The position numbers and the translations under genes are program-made. Source: an uncultured Gammaproteobacteria bacterium (lineage in GTDB: Bacteria; Patescibacteriota; Patescibacteriia; Magasanikbacterales; UBA922). From it: a DNA stretch of 64,000 bases. The notes beneath the pieces are model-generated. The model saw nothing but the letters and a program-made list of their open reading frames with translations, did no database searches and was not told the origin of the DNA. Below are positions 7,727 through 58,792 of the stretch, piece by piece. Each line of letters opens with the position of its first letter. Positions within the stretch are counted from its first letter, which is position 1. The stretch spans positions 38,546 through 102,545 of the forward strand of contig CAYMVY010000001.1 in the NCBI GenBank assembly GCA_964394405.1. The letters run 5' to 3'.

Positions 7727-8308
7727 CTAAGTAATTGGCTCCTCCAAAAATACCGGATCATCATCGCCTTCAAGCGAAGATTCCTCCTCAAATAATGCAG
7801 TGCTCACGCCCGATGAATCCATGCTTATTCCTGAAGTTACCTCCATAGGTTGAAACGAACGTGGTTCTTCGACTGGAGTATAGGTATGAATGGGTTCTGC
7901 AGAATCATCCTCATTCAATTTTCTTTTCTTATGACGAGTATCAATCAGATCGCTCACCCGATGCCAGTCAGTATGATGTGCAAAATCTTCCTCAAAAGGG
8001 TCAGATAATGGTTCGTCTGCAAGCTGGTCTTCGAGAAGTGCAGCTTGTTTGTCACGGGTATTCAGCTCCTGGTAAGATCTCCAAATCGCAATATCACGAT
8101 TGATCTTATCAATCAATTCTCGCTCTGACATTTCTTCAAGTAAATATTCATCATAATCTCCATGTCCAAACTGATTGGAGGAAACCAATTCTTCGTACTG
8201 CTCAAATGGCAAAACCACCACATCATGTGCTTGGGTTGGGTCATGGATCACCACCGTATCCCCTGTTTTTTTCGAAAGCGAAAGTATCCGGTTGAGTCTA
8301 TCAATCAT
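7727..8308 (-). CDS. Hypothetical acidic protein (D/E-rich)
   Basis: 193-aa ORF in an intergenic gap with no recognizable domain. It has its own promoter, TTGACA-N17-gTATAAT. Confidence 0.6.
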   Translation of the reverse strand: MIDRLNRILSLSKKTGDTVVIHDPTQAHDVVVLPFEQYEELVSSNQFGHGDYDEYLLEEMSERELIDKINRDIAIWRSYQELNTRDKQAALLEDQLADEPLSDPFEEDFAHHTDWHRVSDLIDTRHKKRKLNEDDSAEPIHTYTPVEEPRSFQPMEVTSGISMDSSGVSTALFEEESSLEGDDDPVFLEEPIT

Positions 8309-8343
8309 AGGATATATTAATAATAAATTGGGGGGATGTACTG

Positions 8344-8373
8344 ATTATACCTACAGAAAAGTCAGGGTGTCAA
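8344..8373 (-). promoter_or_regulatory. Near-consensus sigma70 promoter (TTGACA-N17/18-TATAAT)
   Basis: The minus strand reads gTTTGACAccctgacttttctgtagGTATAATcag about 35 nt upstream of the ATG at 8308. Confidence 0.55.
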
Positions 8374-8492
8374 ACCGAAAAAAATACAATTATTCTAATT
8401 GACCTAAGTACTCTAAAATAATACACCATTTGAAATAAGTTAGAATGATTAGAATAATTTTCCCATCCGTTCTATTTATCCACCAAAAAATC

Positions 8493-8521
8493 TTGACGCA
8501 TGATAAAAAAAATAATACAAT
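8493..8521 (+). promoter_or_regulatory. sigma70 promoter (TTGACG-N17-TACAAT) driving a non-coding transcript
   Basis: The plus strand reads cTTGACGcatgataaaaaaaataaTACAAT. Confidence 0.5.
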
Positions 8522-8527
8522 GATCGT

Positions 8528-8897
8528 CTGTTCTTTTTTTGGTATAAGAGTTACTGTGTGGAAAGCTAGTCCGATGAGGAGCAAGCGCTGGTGAATAATT
8601 CACCGCCCTTTCTCCTGACCGGACTTCTCTGTCCGCCAGGTTAGATCGCATTCGCGATCTTCATCTTCTACCGCCACACAAAGGAAAATACCATGCGCCT
8701 CAGGGTTGCAATCAAAAGGCCTGAATCACTCTTCGCCCTGTCCGTGGTCGCCTCCGGACTCATCCTGTCGATCGCAGGACTGTTCCGGAGCTGAACTTCG
8801 TCCGATCTTCGGCCCCCCTCCTCCGGGAGGGGTGGCCTATCGGACGAAAAAAACAAACCAAAAAAAACAAAACGCGATATTGCGTTTTTTTGTTTAT
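8528..8897 (+). ncRNA. Candidate structured ncRNA of about 370 nt with unknown identity
   Basis: Bounded by the promoter at 8493-8521 and an intrinsic terminator (aaaacgcgatattgcgttttttt, 8866-8897). About 57% GC in an AT-rich genome. Multiple nested GC helices, for example cgtccgat...ggcccccctcctccgggaggggtggcc...atcggacg and ctccgga...tccggag. No SD-linked ORF. Confidence 0.45.
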
Positions 8898-9121
8898 TAA
8901 CAATCAAAGAACACTAATTGTGTACAACAAAATAATTAAAGTTAATATCAAAATATTTGTTAAATAAAACATTAGGGGTTCGGGGGTGAAAACTGTCCGA
9001 GCTACGAGTGTAGAATAAATGGGGAAACTTAGTGAGGCGAGTTTTTTCACCCCCGAAACTTTTTGTAAAACTTTTTGGTTACAAAAAGTTTTGGATAAAG
9101 CATTTAAGTATTTTGCAAATA

Positions 9122-9162
9122 AATTAAAAACAAAAACCCCGCTCTTCCTAGAAGGGCGGGGC
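9122..9162 (-). terminator. Intrinsic terminator downstream of the 16S rRNA gene
   Basis: The minus strand reads ccccgcccttctaggaagagcggggtttttgttttt. Confidence 0.6.
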
Positions 9163-9331
9163 TATGTTATTGAAGATATTTCACAAAATACATGTGGCAA
9201 AAACCTTGTTCCGACGTTACGTCGAGAACGATTGAATGTTTTCTTATACTTAGAGCAATGCCAGATCATACTCTTGCGAGTGTAATCATGACTTTGGATA
9301 AATCTCGATTTTCATCGAGATCAGACTCCAG

Positions 9332-10835
<1,504 letters not shown>

Positions 10836-12136: not shown

Positions 12137-12252
12137 AATGCTAGTAGTATAGCAACAATTGGCTTATTAAAAAATCCTCTCTTCGAGGAATGAATCGACC
12201 GTCCTCACCAACTGCGTGTAGCAATTGATGAGGACGACCATGTGGTGGTGGA

Positions 12253-12684
12253 TCAGCCGAGCGTGCCCGCCAAGATCGGCGCGAAGAGCTTCTCGGGATC
12301 TTCGGACTCGACAGTGCCCTCACCCTTCTCCAGGTAGACGCGCATGCGCCCCGTGCGCTCGAGTGGAACGTCGTGCGCCAAGTAGAACACATCGACCTTG
12401 AAGAACCTCTCCTCGATCAGGTCACGGATCTGGCCGATCAGGAGCAACGCCCCCGGCTTCGGCTCGTAGTAGGAGATGCTCTCCACGAACAGCTCGAGCT
12501 GATTCGGGAAGATGCCACGCCCGTCGACACAGACCGTCATGGGCTGACGATCAGTGGTGTGGTAGTAGTCCCGGTGGGACACATAGATGTCCCAGATCCC
12601 CGAATTGTTCGAATTCGAGACGATCGGAAGGGTGACAAAATCTTTCCCCTCCTCCCCGACAGACACGTTGTCCAAAGCTCCCAT
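12253..12684 (-). CDS. Hypothetical protein A1 of GC-rich island A (paralog of the 58303-58725 protein)
   Basis: Internal Met preceded by the SD gtcgccAGGGGGttatcATG. About 55% GC. Shares the spaced motif EGxxF..LP...YYxxxDRxxxxVxDGxGxFxN with the island E protein. Confidence 0.6.
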   Translation of the reverse strand: MGALDNVSVGEEGKDFVTLPIVSNSNNSGIWDIYVSHRDYYHTTDRQPMTVCVDGRGIFPNQLELFVESISYYEPKPGALLLIGQIRDLIEERFFKVDVFYLAHDVPLERTGRMRVYLEKGEGTVESEDPEKLFAPILAGTLG

Positions 12685-12875
12685 GATAACCCCCTGGCGA
12701 CTGAAGAAAAACACGTGCTGGTGTCGCAAACCAGACAGAAAAAAATATCATACATAGTGAAAAATGTCAATAATAAAACAAAAAATCCTCTGAATAAAGG
12801 ATTGACCAATCCGCATTCACCCAAGCCGAAGCTCAGATGAATGCGGAACAGAGAACGTTGACCCACACACTGACC

Positions 12876-13175
12876 TCACGGGTCGAGGACGATCACGTAG
12901 CGCGTCACCTGTTCATCCGGCTGATGGGGCACGTCGTGAACATTGGGACCGATCCGTTCGATCGAGACGATGGTATTGTAGTTCAGCATGGCGAACCACG
13001 CCGAATCCGGGAACACAATCATCTCAGACGTCCGATCACCGTCATGCGTCCAGTGAAGGGAAAAAAGATTTTCAGGAAAACCCCCATAGGAGATGCGGCC
13101 AGTCTCCTTATTACCCTGATCATCATACCGAGCCAGCGGCGAACCACGAAATTCCAAACCGTACAGAATATCCAT
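12876..13175 (-). CDS. Hypothetical protein A2 of GC-rich island A
   Basis: 99-aa ORF with the SD caGGAGGGttttccATG and its own promoter about 35 nt upstream. GC-rich codon usage. Confidence 0.55.
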   Translation of the reverse strand: MDILYGLEFRGSPLARYDDQGNKETGRISYGGFPENLFSLHWTHDGDRTSEMIVFPDSAWFAMLNYNTIVSIERIGPNVHDVPHQPDEQVTRYVIVLDP

Positions 13176-22800: not shown

Positions 22801-23206
22801 ATACACTCATTGCCCACAGATAATAAAACAAAAAACCCTTTTTTTCAAGAGTTCCTTGTATGACCCCAGAGAGATGCAGTACGAAATACTACTCCTAAAG
22901 ATATAGGTGGGTGGCCGCAACGCGAGCCCACGGGCTCGAGAAATATTGGCTTCCCAATGTAGTATGTTTGTAGAATAGTATATGTACTGTATCACTAAGT
23001 ACCAGGGTCAATTCTTAATATATCAAGAGGTACACAATTGTGCAAATACGACTCATCCACTGCCTAGAACATTCTAAATAATGGAGGAGAGACGACCAGA
23101 TGAGACAGGTCGCCGAGAAGCAAAAGAACAATAACGAAAACGCGATAACGCATAAGTCGGGATATCCCAACTCACACGTTACCACTTGGACCTCCCCTGA
23201 CTTCGA

Positions 23207-23406
23207 TCAAGAGTCGTGATTGCCCCGCTGCCGTTTGACCGGAGCTGGGACGGACACGACCTGGGACTCAAAGAGGGGGCGCCGTCGACATCCACGGATA
23301 GTCGCGGGGTCGAGGCGAGCCGTGTCACCACCCGAAGGAGTCGAGGACTTTTTCTTGGACTTGGGCAAATTCTTTGCCCACACTTGATACACATGATTTT
23401 CAGGCA
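23207..23406 (-). CDS. Small hypothetical protein of GC-rich island B (66 aa)
   Basis: SD ttctGAGGAtcgctATG; MPENHVYQVWAKNLPKSKKKSSTPSGG...; basic, GC-rich codons. Confidence 0.4.
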
Positions 23407-23693
23407 TAGCGATCCTCAGAAGGATGCTCGATTGAGTATTCTCAAACTTTGAGTACACTCGCACCAAGCGAAAGTCGGTCCAGACGAAATTCTTTCTTTG
23501 AAAAAACTTATTCTAAAAACATTGCATAAGAATACAAAAATAAAAAAAGCTTGTAAAGAATATTATTACTAATTCCTTACAAGTTATTCACAGATAGATC
23601 TGCCACTATCTTCCGATAATGAAAGACAATGGCAGATGGGCGGTCGACGAGTGGGCACTCATCGATCGCCCCGAGGAAAAGAACGGACGAAAC

Positions 23694-23910
23694 TCACGTA
23701 ACGGCATCAACCTGCTGAGCAGGCGCGTAAGCCGGTGTATACCAGCCAGACCTGTCAACAGTGATAGTTCGCTTGCAGACACACGTGACGCGGCAGCCAT
23801 CTCCACGTGCTTCCACGCTTTCAATGACACCAGCGCCACACGAACACTCGAAGGCCTGACCTTCTCGAATGCGATCAAGCCGACACATTCCTTTGAGTCC
23901 AATGGGCATG
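23694..23910 (-). CDS. Small Cys-rich protein of island B (71 aa)
   Basis: SD cacacAAGGAGagcgaccATG; MPIGLKGMCRLDRIREGQAFECSCGAGVIESVEARGDGCRVTCVCKR with six Cys, possibly a metal-binding knot. Confidence 0.5.
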
Positions 23911-24023
23911 GTCGCTCTCCTTGTGTGACGGGTGAACAAGACGAATGGACGCGGAAGTTGCGAGAGAAGCAACGCGAGAGCCAGAGTTGCCGGCTCAGCG
24001 CGTTACCACACTCATCTTGATAG

Positions 24024-24224
24024 TCAGTCGAGGCCGTACTTGTGACGCAACTCGATCCCCTCACGGAGCTCGAAGAACGGATCGGTGACGTACCTCGGTC
24101 GACGGTTGGGACCGCGATTCGAGTTGTACTTGTGCTTCGGCGGGAGAACCGCCTCCGGGGACTGGGTGGACGCAGTGTCGAGGTTCTGCTGCTGTGACGG
24201 CAGCTTGGAATCAGTTCCAGACAT
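24024..24224 (-). CDS. Small S/T/Q-rich protein of island B (66 aa), member of the MS-x-(T/S)...SP / RxRY..D..EL motif family
   Basis: SD cgAGGGAatgccATG; MSGTDSKLPSQQQNLDTASTQSPEAVLPP...NRRPRYVTDPFFELREGIELRHKYGLD. Confidence 0.5.
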   Translation of the reverse strand: MSGTDSKLPSQQQNLDTASTQSPEAVLPPKHKYNSNRGPNRRPRYVTDPFFELREGIELRHKYGLD

Positions 24225-24304
24225 GGCATTCCCTCGAAATTCTCTCGTGTGGCGCACGAGAGTTATTCGTCTTCCCAAGAATTCCCACCGTAGGAATACT
24301 TGTT

Positions 24305-24355
24305 CAAACGAGTTGCTGTAGGGACAAAAAATCTATCGACACAGCAACTCGTTTG
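24305..24355. repeat. Perfect 15-bp inverted repeat with 21-bp spacer (caaacgagttgctgt ... acagcaactcgtttg)
   Basis: Exact reverse-complement arms read directly from the sequence. Located between two small island B ORFs; no downstream T-tract. Confidence 0.7.
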
Positions 24356-24478
24356 TGACAAATATCCAACAAAATATATAAGGAACAAAACACTCTATTT
24401 CACCCCCTACTAAGTACATATTTTTTACTCAATAGGGGGTGAGCAACGCAGAGGACGATACGTTTTCACCCCACAGAT

Positions 24479-24655
24479 TCACCGAGTGGATGAGGGATCT
24501 CGGAACTTGTGGTTCAGATGATCCTTGTTCGGACGGAGGAGCGACAGGAGAAGCTCTTCGTCGATCTCGTCATAGCGACGACGAGAAGAGAACGGTTCGG
24601 TAGTCGGCGTGGGCGCGACAGGCTCTGGGGGACGGGGAGATTGAGTATCAGACAT
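24479..24655 (-). CDS. Small S/T/P-rich protein of island B (58 aa), same family as 24024-24224
   Basis: GGAG 9 nt upstream; MSDTQSPRPPEPVAPTPTTEPFSSRRRYDEIDEELLLSLLRPNKDHLNHKF. Shares RxRY-D-EL-L-LR with the 24024 ORF. Confidence 0.45.
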   Translation of the reverse strand: MSDTQSPRPPEPVAPTPTTEPFSSRRRYDEIDEELLLSLLRPNKDHLNHKFRDPSSTR

Positions 24656-24704
24656 GGTAGACGGCTCCATTCTAGAGTGGAATGATTCTCTGGGCGAAGA
24701 GGCA

Positions 24705-24740
24705 TTGATCTTGAGGCGAGTTCGAATCTATACACAATTT
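24705..24740 (-). promoter_or_regulatory. Putative promoter (TTGAAT-N18-TGTATAGAT, extended -10) for island B small ORFs
   Basis: The minus strand reads gTTTGAATgtatatatactgaaattgTGTATAGATtcg. Confidence 0.3.
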
Positions 24741-26579: not shown

Positions 26580-28658
26580 TTACAAATCGTCAAGCGACTT
26601 CAAAAAACTTCTTACTGGCTTAGTACTATCATCTGCTTCATACGTAATATCGTCTACATCATCGCTCGGATCAGAAAAAACGAGTGTACTCGATCCCTGA
26701 CTTCGCTCATGATGGATCAAATCCCGATCAATCTCTTCGATAAATCGACTAGGGCCTTGCAGGACACTAAACGAACTCGCAAGTAATGGATATGAGAGAT
26801 ATAAAAACTTTTTCGCGCGAGTAATCGCGACATAAAACAACCTCCGCTCTTCTTCCACTCCATCAACCTCCCTCATTGATCGCTCACTGGGGAATTGACC
26901 AGCAGAAACATGGAGAATAAAAACCGCCTCCCACTCCAATCCTTTTGCCTGATGAATCGTAGAAAGTACAATTTTTTCCTGATCCTCATCAGCGCTTTTT
27001 GCAACCTTACCCGAATAACTCTCCTGCAAACTCGCTTCAGCTAAAAAATCAGAAAGCCGTGATTCCCCTTCCAGAGATATATACTGATCAGCAAACAGCG
27101 CAAGCTGTTCAATATCTTGCAGACGTTCTTTATAATCTGGATATTCTGCTTCCAAATATTCTGTATACGGAGATGCCAAAATTCCCCGAATCATTTCTCC
27201 TGGTCCTCGCTCATGAGAATCAACAACTTCATTCCAAATTCGCAAAAATTCTCCCCAACCCAATTGTCCTCGGAGAGAAAGAATACTTCCCGCGTGATCG
27301 ATAGGCTCGTTCGGTGCCAGTCCACGGACCATGTCAATAATTTTTTCAGCACCCGACGGACCAATTCCTGTCTGCATCGTAAGAACACGCATCCATGCAA
27401 TTGAATCTCCCCGATTCGCAAAAATTCGCAAATACGCGAGTATATCTTTCACATGCGCGCGTTCAAAAAATCGCACACCGCCACGATAATCATACGGAAT
27501 TTGTCTTCGTGTTAACTCGATTTCAAGTGATTGTGAATGGAATGCGGCGCGAAATAATACGGCGATTTCAGACAACGAAACCCCTTCTTCTGATAATTCA
27601 AGAATTCGATCCGCAATAAATCGTGCTTCTTCGAGTGCATCAACAAATGCATGTACTTCAGGCTTGGTAAAATTCTCCCGAATACTCCGCAACTCTTTTT
27701 TATATTGCTTTTTATTTTGTGCAATAACCTCATTTGCAACCCCGAGAATATCCGGAGTCGAACGATAATTCGTTTCAAGTCGAAAAATGTGAGCATCTTT
27801 GTATGTATGTTCGAAATCAAGAATGTTTGTGATATCAGCAGCACGAAATGAATAAATACTCTGTGCGTCATCCCCTACTACCAACAAATTCTGATGAACA
27901 CTCGCAAAAAAACGAATAATCGATGCCTGGATCTTATTCGTATCCTGATACTCATCAACTAAAATATATTGAAATTGTGTAGCATATTTTTTACGTACCT
28001 GCTCTGAAGATGAAAGTAGTAAAAATAAATTGACGAGCAAATCATCAAAATCCATTACATTACTTTCTCGTTTTCTTCTACTATAATCTTCTGCAATACG
28101 AGATAATGCTTCTGTAAAATCGACCCACTGTGGATGTTTTTCGAGGAGGACATCCGCAACCGTACGCTCTGCATTTCTCGCAAAACTAAGTAGTGATGCA
28201 ACTACCGCAGGAGAAGGAAATTTTTTATACGTACGCTGTATTCCTTCATTCCCGATACACAATTTGATCATGTCGCGTGCGTCTTCTGAATCAAGAATAT
28301 TAAACGTATTGTTATAACCAAGCAATGGTGCGTACTGTTTGAGTATACGATATGCAATATGATGGAATGTTCCAGACCATGGCAATTTCACTCCGCCCCG
28401 AGTGAGCGATTCCACACGATGCAACATTTCACGAGCAGCTTTATTGGTGAAGGTGAGTAATAAAATTGAAGAAGGATCAATACCCTTCTCTAGTAAATAC
28501 GCAACTCGATACGTAATCGCACGTGTCTTACCACTTCCCGCTCCCGCAAGCACCAGGCACGGACCATCGCCATGCAATACGACATCAAGTTGTTCTGTAT
28601 TTAATTCTTTTTGAAAATCAATCATAACGATTTTATCCCATTTAGACTGAGAAGCCAC
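26580..28658 (-). CDS. UvrD/PcrA/Rep-family ATP-dependent DNA helicase
   Basis: 692 aa with Walker A AGAGSGKTRAITYR and SF1 helicase motifs. Confidence 0.9.
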   Translation of the reverse strand: MASQSKWDKIVMIDFQKELNTEQLDVVLHGDGPCLVLAGAGSGKTRAITYRVAYLLEKGIDPSSILLLTFTNKAAREMLHRVESLTRGGVKLPWSGTFHHIAYRILKQYAPLLGYNNTFNILDSEDARDMIKLCIGNEGIQRTYKKFPSPAVVASLLSFARNAERTVADVLLEKHPQWVDFTEALSRIAEDYSRRKRESNVMDFDDLLVNLFLLLSSSEQVRKKYATQFQYILVDEYQDTNKIQASIIRFFASVHQNLLVVGDDAQSIYSFRAADITNILDFEHTYKDAHIFRLETNYRSTPDILGVANEVIAQNKKQYKKELRSIRENFTKPEVHAFVDALEEARFIADRILELSEEGVSLSEIAVLFRAAFHSQSLEIELTRRQIPYDYRGGVRFFERAHVKDILAYLRIFANRGDSIAWMRVLTMQTGIGPSGAEKIIDMVRGLAPNEPIDHAGSILSLRGQLGWGEFLRIWNEVVDSHERGPGEMIRGILASPYTEYLEAEYPDYKERLQDIEQLALFADQYISLEGESRLSDFLAEASLQESYSGKVAKSADEDQEKIVLSTIHQAKGLEWEAVFILHVSAGQFPSERSMREVDGVEEERRLFYVAITRAKKFLYLSYPLLASSFSVLQGPSRFIEEIDRDLIHHERSQGSSTLVFSDPSDDVDDITYEADDSTKPVRSFLKSLDDL

Positions 28659-28770
28659 GTATGATAAGTACGTAGCAAGCTTCTCTCCTCGCGGCGGCCG
28701 AAGCCGCCGCCCCGTGAATTGTGAGATCTCTCAGATTAGGTAGCCGACGTACTCCGGACCCCCTTAGATA

Positions 28771-29256
28771 TTACCCGTCGACCAATTCGATGGTGCTCTC
28801 GTTGTCCACCTGGACATAGATGGTTCGAAAGTAGCCCTGAGGAGCCCATCGCCCCGTCACGAGAACTTCCTGAACAATCGAATACCAGTTGCGATCACCG
28901 AAAAGCACAGTCCAGACACGCTTCCTCACTTCGTTCATGTGGTACGGTCGTGGTACCTGCGGACGCCGTTGGCCCATACGCAGATGCCAGTAATCATACT
29001 TCTCTTCCGAGCCCTGCCAGCAGACGTCGACCGTCACTCGTCTGAAGTAGCCCACAGGGGCGCACTCCTCGACGAGAAGGATGACGACTTCAAACGGGGT
29101 CATGTTTCCGAAGAGAGTGTGCCATGCCTCATGATACCGACGAGCGAGACGAACCAGATTGTCTGGTTGTGGCATACCCTTCTTACAGCGTGAACGTGGC
29201 ACCTTGTGATGCGACGTCATTTGTGACGGATCATCCGACTTCGCACGTTTTCCCAT
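28771..29256 (-). CDS. HNH-nuclease-like protein with degenerate zinc ligands, in GC-rich island C
   Basis: SD gctcGAGAGGGcacaaATG; HHKVPRSRCKKGMPQPDNLVRLARRYHEAWH matches HH..P.S.GG....NL..LC..CH...H, with the Cys ligands replaced by A and Y. About 58% GC. Confidence 0.5.
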   Translation of the reverse strand: MGKRAKSDDPSQMTSHHKVPRSRCKKGMPQPDNLVRLARRYHEAWHTLFGNMTPFEVVILLVEECAPVGYFRRVTVDVCWQGSEEKYDYWHLRMGQRRPQVPRPYHMNEVRKRVWTVLFGDRNWYSIVQEVLVTGRWAPQGYFRTIYVQVDNESTIELVDG

Positions 29257-30980: not shown

Positions 30981-31009
30981 TTGACAAGCACGCAGTTCTC
31001 GTGTAGACT
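30981..31009 (+). promoter_or_regulatory. Consensus-like sigma70 promoter (TTGACA-N17-TAGACT) of GC-rich island D
   Basis: The plus strand reads cTTGACAagcacgcagttctcgtgTAGACTg. Confidence 0.5.
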
Positions 31010-31071
31010 GTCTCGGTCTCTAAAAAGACGTATACGGAAGTATACGTTTTGCGTTCTAGGAGGAACGAGTC

Positions 31072-31275
31072 ATGCAACACAACCGTCACACGCAACGCCC
31101 CCACCAACCCAACACCCATCTACCCGCCCCGAGTCTGCAGGCACGCGTCCAAGCGTTCGCCTGGCGCACTGCAGCACGAATCGTGCTCCCGCTCTTCGTC
31201 ATGGGACTCCGGAAATCGGAACGCCCACCACAGCGAAACACGGTGACCGATCAGGGTCACGGGCGACGTCTGTAG
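31072..31275 (+). CDS. Small hypothetical protein of island D (67 aa) with a hydrophobic segment
   Basis: Strong SD ctAGGAGGAacgagtcATG. MQHNRHTQRPHQPNTHLPAPSLQARVQAFAWRTAARIVLPLFVMGL... Flanked by its own promoter and terminator. Confidence 0.5.
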   Translation: MQHNRHTQRPHQPNTHLPAPSLQARVQAFAWRTAARIVLPLFVMGLRKSERPPQRNTVTDQGHGRRL

Positions 31276-31326
31276 TCGCGAGTGCGATTCGACGTGGTGC
31301 GGGAGGACAGAGAGATAAAAATCAAA

Positions 31327-31398
31327 GACCACCCGCTACCACATGATATTCTAAACAATTGGAATATCGTGTGGGAGAATCCGGGTGGTTTTTGTTTT
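31327..31398. terminator. Nested-hairpin bidirectional terminator (island D ORF and queA)
   Basis: Outer stem accacccg/cgggtggt plus tttttgtttt; inner stem ccacatgatattc/gaatatcgtgtgg. Confidence 0.5.
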
Positions 31399-32488
31399 AA
31401 TAGACAAACATCGCATCACCAAAACTATAAAACCGATATTCTTTTTCTACTGCAGCTTTGTAACAATTCAACATAAATTCCCGATCTCCGACAAAAGCAG
31501 ACACAAGCATGAGGAGTGTGGATTTCGGAAGATGAAAATTAGTAATCACTGCATCGACAATGTGAAATTCAAATCCAGGAGTAATAAAAATATTAATATC
31601 GCCGGTATATGCGTGCATTTTTCCTTGATGAAGCAAGGCAACACCTTCAAGTGTTCGTGTAGTCGTAGTCCCAACAGCAATTACTCGCCTCCCTTCTTGT
31701 TTCGCACGATTGATAATTTCTGCAGTTTCTTCTGCCACCTCCACCCATTCGCTATGCATCGTGTGATCTTCCACCCGTTCAGATTTTACCGGCAAAAAAG
31801 TTCCAAGTCCTACATGCAGTGTAACTTCTACAAATTCAACTCCTTTTTGTTTTAATTTTTCAATCAGCTCTGGAGTAAAATGAAAACCAGCAGTCGGAGC
31901 TGCAACAGATCCTTCGGGCTTCGCATATACGGTCTGATAACTCTCAAGCTCATGCGGTTCATCTTTTACATACGGAGGAATAGGAATCGAGCCATACTGA
32001 TTTGCTTTTTTTCGCACCTCTTCTTCGCTATCAGTAAACTGTACCAATATAGTTCCATCTTTCTCTTTAAAAATTACTTCACAATAAAAATCTGGAGCAA
32101 ACCGCACAACCATGCCCGTCTGAATTCGTCGCCCTGGTTTCCCTAATACCTTCCATACTCCACTATTTTCCATTGGACGAACGAGAAATATCTCTACTTC
32201 TTTCTGATTCAATAATGCATGATCTGGAACTCCATCCTGATTCGCATCAGTATTTCCTGCTTCGAGCTTTCCCATCAGTCGCGCTTTAAACACTTTTGAA
32301 TTATTCCAAACCAACACATCACCAGATTTCAAATAATCAACAATATCATAAAAATGACGATCGTCAGTCGTCTTGCTTTTTCGATCAATTACCATCAGTC
32401 GCGAATGATCACGTGGTTCGACTGAATGTTGCGCAATGCGCTCGTCTGGAAGAATGTAATCGAAATCTTTGGTGTGCATAGTATTCAC
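31397..32488 (-). CDS. queA: S-adenosylmethionine:tRNA ribosyltransferase-isomerase
   Basis: 363 aa with QueA fold motifs (DFDYILPDERIAQ, VLVWNNSKVFKARL). Confidence 0.85.
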   Translation of the reverse strand: MNTMHTKDFDYILPDERIAQHSVEPRDHSRLMVIDRKSKTTDDRHFYDIVDYLKSGDVLVWNNSKVFKARLMGKLEAGNTDANQDGVPDHALLNQKEVEIFLVRPMENSGVWKVLGKPGRRIQTGMVVRFAPDFYCEVIFKEKDGTILVQFTDSEEEVRKKANQYGSIPIPPYVKDEPHELESYQTVYAKPEGSVAAPTAGFHFTPELIEKLKQKGVEFVEVTLHVGLGTFLPVKSERVEDHTMHSEWVEVAEETAEIINRAKQEGRRVIAVGTTTTRTLEGVALLHQGKMHAYTGDINIFITPGFEFHIVDAVITNFHLPKSTLLMLVSAFVGDREFMLNCYKAAVEKEYRFYSFGDAMFVY

Positions 32489-33860: not shown

Positions 33861-34433
33861 CTATAAATGATACTTTTTCAATTCTCGTTCACGCACTCGG
33901 TAATCCGGTAATATATGAGAAACTTCTCTCCAAAATTGTGCCGAATGATTATGGTGCCGCAAGTGACAGAGTTCATGTACCACTACATAATCCCGCAAAT
34001 CTTCAGATAAAAAAATAAGCTTATAATTAAAATTCAAATTTTCTTTGGTAGAACAACTCCCCCACCTACTCGACGTATTTTTGATAGAAATCCGTTTGAA
34101 GGTAAATCCATGCAACTGAGCAAAATGCTTTACCCGCTCAGTAATTATTTTTTTTGCTCGGGCTTTATTCGCATGATATGAAAACTTCGGACCAGAAAAT
34201 TGAGATTTGGTTACAGCTTCCAGTTTTTTCAACACTCCCTCAATCCATTCGTGCTTTGATCGTACAAATTTCTCAATAACTGTTTTTGGTACCAGCTTTG
34301 GTGCAGTGACTCGCACTTTGCCTTTGGAGTTTACAGACAACGTGATGCGACGCAACCGTGCGCGTCTGTGTAATGAATATTCCATAAAATTCAATTTGAA
34401 GGGGGACGACGTATCGCCCCCCCTCCCAGTCAT
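33861..34433 (-). CDS. DUF45/YgjP-family zinc metallohydrolase (HExxH)
   Basis: VVHELCHLRHHNH motif. The start may be at 34433 (ATGA overlap with the upstream small ORF) or at the internal MEYSL (34385). Confidence 0.7.
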   Translation of the reverse strand: MTGRGGDTSSPFKLNFMEYSLHRRARLRRITLSVNSKGKVRVTAPKLVPKTVIEKFVRSKHEWIEGVLKKLEAVTKSQFSGPKFSYHANKARAKKIITERVKHFAQLHGFTFKRISIKNTSSRWGSCSTKENLNFNYKLIFLSEDLRDYVVVHELCHLRHHNHSAQFWREVSHILPDYRVRERELKKYHL

Positions 34434-34603
34434 CGATGTCGAAGTCGCACCACCCTACCAAAGGCAACGAAGGTGACCACAGTATGAGGGGCACTACACT
34501 TTTTGGGGGCAGGATCCTGCGGTGACATCCTGTTGAGGAGCGCCTGAATCCTCTCAGGTGAGATGATCTGATGTCCGACCGAATCAACGCCAATATTTCC
34601 CAT
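34430..34603 (-). CDS. Small GC-rich ORF (57 aa), translationally coupled to the DUF45 gene
   Basis: Strong SD gtctAGGAGGtcgtataATG. MGNIGVDSVGHQIISPERIQALLNRMSPQDPAPKK... The stop TGA overlaps the downstream ATG as ATGA. About 57% GC. Confidence 0.4.
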   Translation of the reverse strand: MGNIGVDSVGHQIISPERIQALLNRMSPQDPAPKKCSAPHTVVTFVAFGRVVRLRHR

Positions 34604-57582: not shown

Positions 57583-57845
57583 ATGCTTCCAGTTGAGACT
57601 TATGCTCCAAATGTCTTATTGCGCGTACGCTTGCCCACAGCTACCGGATCTCGGAAAGCTTTGGGAGGAGTCTGTAATTTCCGAGTGTCAAAAGAATGTC
57701 CTGATTTCTGTTCTAGGTTACTATATTGTTCATTTTTCTTCAACGTATCAAGATGATTTTTATACCATTTTTTCATATAAAAAAATATTGTGTGCATCGC
57801 CCCCACGATCCCGAGAGATCATGGAGGCGCTGCTCTAGATGGAGC

Positions 57846-58049
57846 CTAGAACCCGAAACGGGAGCGGATCCAGTTCCACACACCCTTGGAGGGCTGCTGA
57901 TTGGACGGGGTGACCGCCGTGCTCTTCTGGTCGGGAGTGGCGAGCGCACGCAAGATGTCGGCGTCGGGCGACGGGGACACCTTGAGATTGCTGTTCGACG
58001 AGGTCGACTGGCGGAGACGGGACTGACGGAGTTCCCTGGAGTTGGACAT
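57846..58049 (-). CDS. Small S/T-rich protein E2 of GC-rich island E (68 aa), similar in composition to island B small proteins
   Basis: MSNSRELRQSRLRQSTSSNSNLKVSPSPDADILRALATPDQKSTAVTPSNQQPSKGVWNWIRSRFGF. Its own promoter lies upstream; the first ATG of the track ORF lies upstream of the predicted TSS. Confidence 0.45.
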   Translation of the reverse strand: MSNSRELRQSRLRQSTSSNSNLKVSPSPDADILRALATPDQKSTAVTPSNQQPSKGVWNWIRSRFGF

Positions 58050-58155
58050 CGTGGCACCATTTCCGGAGCGAGCGAATAAGAGCGCCGAGACTGACGCAAT
58101 ACTGCTACACTTCGGAGTTAAGAGCCACGAAACAAATAATTTTGAGTATCTACAC

Positions 58156-58184
58156 AATCTACCCTATAATATATGTTTTGTCAA
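58156..58184 (-). promoter_or_regulatory. sigma70 promoter (TTGACA-N17-TAGATT) for the E2 ORF
   Basis: The minus strand reads gaTTGACAaaacatatattatagggTAGATTgtg. Confidence 0.45.
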
Positions 58185-58302
58185 TCAGTCTGAAGTATAA
58201 AAACAAAAAATAATTGCTATGATAAGCAATTACTAAGAGAATCGCGACGCACCCCCCTGTAGGAAAAACAGGGAGGCGCGTTGCACAGAAGTCGTGTGTC
58301 GA

Positions 58303-58725
58303 TCAGACGCTCGAGGCGAGCATCTTCTTCCCCACCTCTTCGTCGGTCGCGCGCCGGACGCAGGCGTAGAGGGTATCGACCCACACGACGGTCACGTGGG
58401 ACACACCAGGGACGAGTCCTTCGGGTGCGAACATCCGACACGTGCGGGAGCCGCCCGGATTCTTGAAGTAGAACCAGACGCCACCATCCTCGACCCCATG
58501 CCTACGGTCCCGACAGAGCGGGTAATAGACCGGCGTCTCCGGATACTTGTTCGCCTTGTTGCTCGGGAGCGACCGCGCCTCGGCCGGCAGGAGGAAGGTC
58601 AAGCCTTCCTTGAGAAGAACGGACGGCGGTCCGTTGTCCACCGGGATGTCGAGGTGATGGAACACCTCCTTCCCACTCAGATGGCTCATCACCACCTCGG
58701 GCGTATCATCTTCAGAGACCCACAT
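58303..58725 (-). CDS. Hypothetical protein E1 of GC-rich island E (140 aa), paralog of 12253-12684
   Basis: SD acAAGGGGGtcttacATG. Shares EGLTFLLP...YYPLCRDRRHGVEDGGVWFYFKN with island A's EGKDFVTLP...YYHTTDRQPMTVCVDGRGIFPN. Confidence 0.6.
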   Translation of the reverse strand: MWVSEDDTPEVVMSHLSGKEVFHHLDIPVDNGPPSVLLKEGLTFLLPAEARSLPSNKANKYPETPVYYPLCRDRRHGVEDGGVWFYFKNPGGSRTCRMFAPEGLVPGVSHVTVVWVDTLYACVRRATDEEVGKKMLASSV

Positions 58726-58763
58726 GTAAGACCCCCTTGTGCATCATCGCCGATGATTCAGCG

Positions 58764-58792
58764 AGACCAACACAAGATAGATGAAAAAAATG
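58764..58792 (-). promoter_or_regulatory. sigma70 promoter (TTGACA-N17-TATCTT) for E1
   Basis: The minus strand reads cTTGACAaaatcatttttttcatcTATCTT. Confidence 0.45.

Follow-up and report, generated by a model that had tools for sequence, protein, structure and literature searches.

The interval 8493–8897 of the window analysed here (a stretch of 64,000 nucleotides of contig CAYMVY010000001.1) is probably a monocistronic mRNA of ~365 nt for a 33-residue, fast-evolving, single-pass membrane peptide, the translation of which is proposed to be gated by the leader. The promoter of this unit is strong, conserved and of the sigma-70 type, and its terminator is intrinsic and bidirectional. The GC-rich structure belongs to the untranslated regions (UTRs), i.e. 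a leader of ~165 nt (hairpins H1 and H2, and helix P0) and a 3′ UTR (hairpin H4), and both H1 and H4 are RNA elements supported by covariation. The unit is a new, lineage-specific mRNA with a small open reading frame (ORF) and a new leader motif, for which a dual-function RNA is the main open alternative. An earlier note had described the interval as an unidentified non-coding RNA (ncRNA). It was right about a bounded, conserved and highly structured transcript of the + strand, but not about the lack of an ORF, since the transcript contains a conserved small ORF that is preceded by a Shine-Dalgarno (SD) sequence and is under purifying selection.

The features of the unit, all on the + strand and with positions counted in the window, are as follows.

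8476–8484 (+), upstream box TTATCCACC, which matches the DnaA-box consensus at 8 of 9 positions, ends 8 nt before the -35 hexamer and is followed by an A-tract
8493–8521 (+), sigma-70-type promoter TTGACG-17-TACAAT, matching the consensus at 10 of 12 positions
8531–8540 (+), U-rich 5′ tract UUCUUUUUUU (within the conserved CUGUUCUUUUUUUGG), predicted partner of the SD region 8680–8686
8540–8551 (+), 5′ arm of P0, the predicted leader-closing helix, pairing with 8662–8673
8569–8624 (+), hairpin H1 (56 nt), with stem P1 GUCCG/CGGAC, an internal loop, stem P2 GGAGC/UCUCC and a variable apical stem
8591–8593 (+), start-like codon in H1, GUG here and AUG or GUG elsewhere, always in the context RUGA
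8643–8660 (+), hairpin H2, AGAUCGC AUUC GCGAUCU, from the leader fold of the window
8681–8685 (+), SD sequence AAGGA, 7 nt upstream of the ATG and preceded by GCCAC (GUCAC in relatives)
8693–8794 (+), small ORF of 33 aa, MRLRVAIKRPESLFALSVVASGLILSIAGLFRS, with an SD-preceded ATG
8752–8790 (+), hairpin H3, CUCCGGA...UCCGGAG, within the coding region
8797–8848 (+), hairpin H4, with outer stem (U)CGUCCGA/UCGGACG(A), an internal loop and a GC-rich inner stem
8849–8868 (+), A-rich spacer between H4 and the terminator, its composition conserved in all loci
8869–8895 (+), intrinsic terminator AAAACGCGAUAUUGCGUUUU with U-run (hairpin 8869–8888), conserved in relatives

Distribution of the unit and its small ORF

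Syntenic loci were fetched with the 193-aa protein encoded beside the unit, from species-representative genomes and then, by way of its database homologues, from further assemblies. The unit was found in 17 distinct loci (the window counted), at the same place, in the same orientation and once per locus, and in all 17 it lies between the gene of the acidic 193-aa protein near tuf and the 3′ end of a solitary 16S rRNA gene. It is single-copy and strictly syntenic in a whole subclade of Candidatus Magasanikbacteria, the lineage of the Patescibacteria (candidate phyla radiation, CPR) to which the gene relatives of the window belong. The conserved parts follow each other in the order upstream box, promoter, CUGUUCUUUUUUUGG, H1, H2, (C)GUCAC-AAGGAG-ATG, variable GC-rich ORF, H4, A-rich spacer and terminator. 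In loci L194–L196, whose neighbour protein is 46% identical, the junction between this gene and the 16S gene is ~300 nt long and the unit is absent; in 20 more distant loci and in the rest of the window no match to a covariance model of H1 (R1) was obtained. A sequence pattern, CCGATGAGGAGC-N(20-46)-CTGRCCGG, was too loose to extend this distribution, since among the matches listed (from metagenomes, and 35 viral stretches) it recovered only unrelated GC-rich coding DNA.

The claim that only low-complexity ORFs without an SD are present was wrong: AAGGA at 8681–8685 precedes the ATG at 8693, which opens a frame of 33 codons. The N-terminus of the encoded peptide is basic, and its single hydrophobic helix, of 19 residues, is C-terminal. 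A small ORF with SD, ATG and a single transmembrane helix occurs in 13 of the 16 relatives (28–90 aa), and the contig of L189 is cut inside the ORF. Most of the peptides in relatives measure 28–53 aa and those of three loci 82–90 aa. The SD of most relatives is AAGGAG with a spacer of 6–10 nt, and the ORF ends 3–36 nt before H4.

The small ORF is under purifying selection, which is clear in one orthologue group. Two members of this 33-aa group, L004 and L197, show 12 synonymous and 7 non-synonymous differences (ratio of non-synonymous to synonymous rates, dN/dS, 0.11), 13 of these 19 differences are changes of the third codon position, and the two remaining frames are interrupted by stops. Within the group dN/dS was 0.10–0.16, and in other pairs 0.14–0.7. 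The peptides as a whole form three or four barely alignable groups, that of the window aligning with those of L007, L008, L009 and L191 (FALxxVASxxIL).

Searches for small-protein families gave nothing below E=0.09 in Pfam, NCBIfam and PHROGs, a profile search gave no match, and phmmer against 1.84 billion representatives returned one 574-aa match without an aligned stretch. Having no family or database homologue, the small-ORF gene is unannotated. A public gene call of 151 aa on an identical Logan contig (L001) spans 8445–8900 (+) and needs two TGA codons to be read through. An alternative genetic code was rejected for the window, as TGA terminates 11 of its 64 long ORFs; the code is therefore standard and the 151-aa call an artefact of an alternative code. 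Spurious long gene calls likewise span the element in L191 and L192.

Transcription signals and folding

Both the promoter and the terminator (a hairpin followed by a T-run) are present where the earlier note had placed them. Relatives share TTGAC(G) and the -10 hexamer. In 4 kb, 14 promoter-like sites were found against 7.5 expected, and a single site is not significant by itself. The terminator scores on both strands. The GC content of 57% claimed for the segment applies to the core alone (55.5% at 8600–8799), since the whole transcript has only ~49%; it is 51.5% at 8700–8899, 30–40% in the flanks and 41.7% in the window.

The upstream box, TTATCCAC, is invariant across nine aligned loci, with variants TTATCAAC and TTATACAC in L185, L190 and L193. 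DnaA-box matches with one mismatch are not enriched in the window (17 against 19.5 expected). Six of the 17 (at 8476, 9090, 9293, 11147, 11331 and 11502) lie within 3 kb around the 16S gene, a clustering that may be coincidental, since at least the match at 9293–9301 falls in the conserved 16S trailer. On the other side of the unit, right after the bidirectional terminator, lies a sequence-conserved near-palindrome, GAACACTAATTGTGTAC (GAACACTAATTGTATAC in relatives), at 8909–8925. It contains TACAAT on the - strand, with no conserved -35 hexamer found; it may serve to bind a protein or belong to a short RNA of the - strand.

Against shuffled sequences, the fold of 8528–8897 reached z -8.5 (+ strand) and -8.0 (- strand). 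For the leader by itself z was -3.8, for the 3′ UTR by itself -7.7 and for the ORF body -0.40; the fold signal thus arises from the leader and the 3′ UTR, and the coding body adds little. ORF bodies of eight loci fold only slightly better than shuffles (z +0.6 to -3.6), and with these values and that of the window, structure inside the ORF was rejected as the cause of its GC content. The two helices quoted in the earlier note both exist, at 8752–8790 (H3) and 8797–8848 (H4), the former not being found as a conserved element.

Covariation of H1 and H4

Covariation among the relatives was positive for both the 5′ hairpin H1 and the 3′ hairpin H4. The covariance model R1 detected one H1 per locus in 15/15 loci with 49–84 bits (about half of this on the antisense strand), and the core motif was recovered in L197 and L200 by a regular-expression match. 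In H1, 91.6% of cells are paired and compensatory changes occur in 8 of the 19 pairs; the covariation score was 0.321 against 0.188±0.017 for shuffles, none of 500 shuffles reached it, and the best slid control gave 0.166. The many G-U pairs of H1 fit the + strand.

In each of the 14 complete loci the 3′ part folds into a long GC-rich hairpin, that of L192 lacking the conserved outer stem, and the inner stem is a different perfect helix in every species. Among 13 aligned loci, 90.6% of H4 cells are paired, with compensatory changes in 10/15 pairs and a covariation score of 0.388 (0.230±0.027 for shuffles, reached by 0/500; best slid control 0.170). Since A's follow it, H4 is not a terminator on either strand. 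H2 is more restricted: its sequence is conserved in the window, L003, L005, L006 and L189, and other subgroups have a CAGG...CCUG hairpin at the same place.

Sequence as well as structure is conserved in H1. Its 5′ side carries the invariant UCCGAU-A-GGA (G or A between), its 3′ side CUG and CGG, and its apical stem a UGA; CCGAU, GAGGAG, RUGA, CUG and CGG are among its invariant words. In P2 the SD-like GAGGAG is paired with CUCCU, which is the same word as the anti-SD of 16S rRNA. The bases of GAGGAG and CUCCU do not covary and the stems above them do, the pattern expected if the sequence itself matters and not only the pairing.

The internal loop of H1 is a conserved 4x4 loop, AUGA/UGAC. It was considered as a kink-turn or box C/D motif (GAUGA...CUGA), which was rejected on register, as the two GA dinucleotides, read from the sequence, are not opposite each other. 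Read as 5′-AUGA/5′-UGAC the loop gives A.C, U-A, G.G and A-U, and forcing G-A pairs puts C.C mismatches into the C-stem; L192 converts the A.C to A-U, which supports the helical reading. The start-like codon of RUGA lies 8–10 nt after GAGGAGC in 15/15 loci and, by reading, also in L197 and L200. At 8591 it opens an upstream ORF of 17 codons in the window. A conserved leader peptide was rejected, since the corresponding peptides range from 3 to >100 aa and differ in frame, stop and sequence. The 5′ arms of H1 and H4 both contain GUCCGAU, which would permit strand-swapped long-range pairing, for which no consistent covariation was found.

Predicted pairing of the 5′ end with the SD region and the proposed mechanism

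CUGUUCUUUUUUUGG is conserved among the aligned loci, with its first half variant in L190 and L002. Pairing of the 5′ tract with the SD was predicted in the minimum free energy (MFE) and centroid folds of the window leader and in most of the leader folds of relatives. In P0, bases just after the tract are predicted to pair with bases just before GUCAC; the arms vary by subgroup and their complementarity is kept (GGUAAAAGA:UCUUUUACC, GGUUAAGGUU:AACCUUAGCC, GCGGGCA:UGCCCGU). Duplexes between the 5′ segment and the segment before the ATG were better than composition-matched shuffles of the 5′ segment in 9/15 loci (p<=0.06). RNAalifold found no consensus structure for the joined 5′ and pre-ATG segments, because the pairing register shifts between subgroups. 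On these data the support for P0 appears moderate among relatives and weak in the window itself. When the 5′ arm of H1 was deleted in silico, the SD paired with the UCCU of the hairpin in 7 of 13 MFE structures, and in L185 the predicted fold covers the SD with another upstream segment, CUCUUGG.

In the proposed mechanism, the 5′-terminal pyrimidine tract UUCUUUU of the primary transcript would pair with the SD (AAAGGAA or AAGGAG), stacked on P0, so that the ribosome-binding site would be occluded by default. H1 would lock a second anti-SD-like strand, CUCCU, to the SD mimic GAGGAG, and whether H1 is intact, opened or cleaved would decide if this strand is unavailable or free for the SD. Translation could then be gated by leader conformation or 5′ processing, by analogy with type I toxin mRNAs. 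H4 and the terminator would act as a barrier against 3′ exonucleases, protection of the 3′ end being most simply their role.

Several observations weigh against a leader-gated mRNA. The tract:SD pairing is present in 88% of cells, but pairing of U with purines carries little information, and P0 held in a rigid register pairs in only 64% of cells. Both together reach 74.4% with compensatory changes in 6/16 pairs, and their covariation score of 0.294 is reached by 18 of 500 shuffles (0.252±0.022; slid control 0.229). The window's own duplex between the 5′ end and the pre-ATG segment is no better than shuffles (z -0.75), and SD accessibility predicted from full-length folds ranges from 0.04 to 0.99. 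The start of transcription is expected at ~8527–8530 solely from the -10 hexamer, and the conserved RUGA codon within H1 is not explained by the model. For the peptide, dN/dS in the window's own group is 0.19–1.16 with saturated synonymous rates, which is weak evidence of coding. Finally, the ORF of L002 ends prematurely after 7 codons and L190 lacks an ATG ORF, and both have kept promoter, H1, SD, H4 and terminator, suggesting selection on the RNA that is independent of the peptide.

The RNA as a possible product

L002 and L190 bear most directly on the view that the RNA itself is the main product or has a dual function, with H1, the SD-like motifs, H4 and the spacer acting as RNA (e.g. as ligands of a protein, of another RNA or of the 30S subunit) and the peptide being secondary or dispensable. 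This view is rather unlikely as it stands, but has several facts on its side. L002 is the closest relative of the window by the neighbour protein (68% identity); downstream of its 7-codon ORF it has diverged, and yet it retains an H1 of 80.5 bits. L190 keeps the RNA elements as well, the UTR elements are far better conserved than the peptide with its three or four groups, and the invariant nucleotides of H1 suggest specific recognition. On the other hand, SD, ATG and ORF are kept in 13 of the 16 relatives, purifying selection is clear in one group, and no trans target was found. Both exceptional loci come from metagenome-assembled genomes, so that single-contig errors or recent pseudogenes are possible; barring such errors, they suggest that the RNA elements are selected independently of the peptide. 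A role for the RNA is compatible with the mRNA reading rather than exclusive of it.

In a broader form, the conserved RNA parts (the 5′ pyrimidine tract, H1 with its SD mimic and start-like codon, H4 and the spacer) could be a peptide-independent regulatory RNA specific to the CPR, either dual-function or a new class of sensor or switch that acts on the 30S subunit, the 16S 3′ end or an RNA-binding protein, or they could belong to a module that resembles type I toxins, has a partner RNA yet to be recognised and is fixed in a Patescibacteria chromosome. This too is unlikely, although a peptide-independent role would account for the retention of every RNA element in L002 and L190 after loss of the ORF. 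RNAIII/hld, SgrS/SgrT and SR1/SR1P are dual-function RNAs that carry a small ORF. Like them, the unit is a highly structured RNA, a few hundred nt in length, that harbours a small ORF and whose RNA elements are better conserved than its peptide, and the loss of the ORF from two relatives that retain the RNA elements adds to the likeness. In contrast to them, no base-pairing target or seed region was identified for the unit.

Comparison with type I toxin mRNAs

The mRNA reading, preferred here, has its closest parallel among type I toxin mRNAs. Those of tisB, zorO and hok have a translationally inert primary transcript. In dinQ of E. coli (dinQ/agrB) and aapA1 of H. pylori (aapA1/IsoA1) it was shown experimentally that the primary transcripts are inert, that their fold closes the ribosome-binding site and that processing activates them (PMC5066626, PMC5416894). 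As in these systems, the unit combines a small hydrophobic peptide of one helix with long structured UTRs, a ribosome-binding site that is predicted to be closed by long-range pairing with the mRNA end, mutually exclusive helices of SD-like and anti-SD-like words, and a peptide that diverges fast while the RNA fold is better conserved. The unit differs in that no promoter of an antisense or partner small RNA (sRNA) was found, that it is single-copy and syntenic beside the 16S gene, and that some orthologues have 82–90 aa.

It could be supposed that the unit is itself the toxin half of a type I toxin-antitoxin module, in which the mRNA of a hydrophobic toxin is kept inert by its own fold together with an antisense or trans-acting sRNA. 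Short single-helix peptides (28–43 aa) in most loci, the heavily structured mRNA with predicted occlusion of the SD by the 5′ end, fast evolution of the peptide, the bidirectional terminator and the two published parallels would all agree with this idea, which is nevertheless doubtful. Promoter prediction across 16 loci revealed no consistently placed, conserved antisense sigma-70-like promoter in or near the unit, nor is it patchy or multi-copy in its distribution as opposed to syntenic, and the proteins of three loci (82–90 aa) exceed the ~60 aa below which toxins of this type are expected to fall. An antitoxin with an antisense promoter was therefore rejected, as none is positionally conserved on the - strand of the 16 loci; a trans-encoded or atypically promoted sRNA is possible.

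A neighbouring structure was considered as the partner RNA. This second structured element lies at 8975–9064 (+), ~80 nt past the terminator, and forms a long hairpin, UUCGGGGGUGAAAACUG...CGAGUUUUUUCACCCCCGAA, with ACUUUUU after it. Its conservation extends to L003, L005, L009 and L192, and in part to L185 and L191; three of its pairs are compensatory, and several G-U pairs agree with the + strand. Its sole match in Rfam was to BTnc231, below threshold (E 0.0067; 25.8 bits against a gathering cutoff of 80.4). The hairpin has no specific complementarity to the small-ORF mRNA and was rejected as its partner for this reason, which also counts against a type I module; it may represent an sRNA of its own or a large structure resembling a terminator. 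The unit would work most like a type I toxin mRNA as far as the analogy goes, yet it fails one defining test, in that neither a positionally conserved antisense promoter nor a complementary neighbour RNA was found.

Other RNA devices

FourU RNA thermometers, e.g. that of Salmonella agsA, are short local hairpins beside the SD. They resemble the unit in that a run of U pairs with SD purines through U-A and U-G (in the unit, by prediction), giving a weak and meltable duplex. In the unit, by contrast, the U tract lies ~150 nt upstream, at the very 5′ terminus of the mRNA, and its predicted pairing would close a domain of several hairpins. In Firmicutes, 5′ mRNA stabilisers consist of an SD-like sequence or a 5′ hairpin, as in the STAB-SD of cry3A and the ermC and aprE leaders. 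The unit shares with these a strong structure near the 5′ end, a strong 3′ hairpin and, at a long distance before the real start, the SD-like GAGGAG and its start-like codon, but its SD-like sequence is itself base-paired within H1.

A leader with covariation and invariant internal-loop nucleotides may also be a riboswitch, or another element that senses a ligand or protein and controls the small ORF. An anti-SD-like strand is located in H1. Reading of the sequences also gives, for most loci, an alternative partner for the 3′ strand of H1 (CCUGACCGGAC), namely a ...CAGG segment further downstream. This alternative pairing, however, rests on words of 4–6 nt. H1 is one rod-like, quasi-continuous hairpin with two mismatches and lacks a pocket formed by a multi-helix junction or a pseudoknot; the nucleotides that never vary in it resemble the SD and the anti-SD, and no Rfam riboswitch matched. 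Moreover, the controlled gene would encode a non-conserved peptide, not a metabolic or transport function, in a single subclade. Such a sensor is considered improbable.

The earlier note had also suggested a divergent RNase P RNA, tmRNA or signal recognition particle (SRP) RNA, the size of which would be in range; the high GC content in an AT-rich genome and the adjoining rRNA gene would fit a housekeeping RNA of this kind (or 6S RNA), or a trailer of the neighbouring 16S gene on the opposite strand. Database searches did not bear this out. At gathering thresholds, Rfam 15 matched only the 16S gene and two tRNAs in the whole window. At E<=10 with permissive filters, 8250–9340 gave 30 matches, none of them to RNase P, tmRNA, SRP or 6S and nothing relevant in 8530–8800, so that the RNA elements are unmatched in Rfam 15 at either setting, and ARAGORN found no tmRNA. 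The 16S gene has its own hairpin just beyond its 3′ end (9137–9161), followed on the - strand by a T-run as read from the sequence, and both the G-U pairs and the covariance-model scores of the unit favour the + strand. As the element is confined to 17 loci of one subclade and absent from the sister lineage L194, which has the same junction between gene and 16S, it is not a universal RNA, and a housekeeping RNA or 16S trailer is very improbable.

A repeat or mobile element was rejected as the origin of the unit, since the window contains a single copy and neither phage nor plasmid records showed any similarity. A literature search returned no description of this locus. The leader motif and the peptide are both absent from every library searched; elements of this kind are familiar, and this one is narrowly distributed.

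Genomic setting

The unit sits in a 1-kb intergenic region between the 193-aa ORF (7727–8308, -) and the 3′ end of the 16S rRNA gene (9332–10835, -). The latter is solitary, with no 23S or 5S gene after its 3′ end. Its trailer (~170 nt) is highly conserved in relatives, and many of the related contigs stop within the 16S gene. The 193-aa protein is very acidic and is encoded just upstream of tuf and the S10 operon. Its gene is always found immediately upstream of tuf and has a promoter with a 12/12 consensus at 8373–8344. The protein belongs to no family in Pfam, NCBIfam or PHROGs, and only ~20 homologues, all apparently from Magasanikbacteria-like genomes, are present among 5.8 billion database proteins.

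Other GC-rich islands

A GC-rich unit of the same general kind is located at 30981–31400 (+), with 59% GC in 31000–31299. It has TTGACA-17-TAGACT as a promoter-like sequence, and GUUCU in its short structured leader is able to pair with the SD region AGGAGGAAC. Its ORF (31072–31275, +) encodes 67 aa with one hydrophobic stretch, has no Pfam match and is followed by a hairpin and a T-run. A further GC-rich block of 1.6 kb (23100–24730) has no long ORF and no Rfam match at E<0.1. Within it, the - strand has a tandem series of four small ORFs, each preceded by an SD (24655–24479, 24224–24024, 23909–23694 and 23407–23207), of 58–71 aa and 56–61% GC, none with a significant Pfam match. The GC-rich islands at 12169–13060, 28647–29200, 34389–34570 and 57772–58776 also hold ORFs without known families. 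GC-rich islands in this genome mostly mark orphan protein genes.

Searching AT-rich genomes for GC-rich, well-folded islands is a classic route to ncRNAs. Here several such islands hold SD-preceded small ORFs, and islands of this type need not be ncRNA genes. The unit is also an example of the hidden small membrane proteins of the CPR, as gene callers miss its small ORF or call spurious frames across it. What had been an unidentified ncRNA becomes a testable model, i.e. an unannotated small-protein gene with a new leader motif supported by covariation, in a CPR lineage that has almost no experimental genetics. If the gating of the SD or a role at the RNA level is true, it would be among the first cis-regulatory RNA mechanisms described for Patescibacteria.

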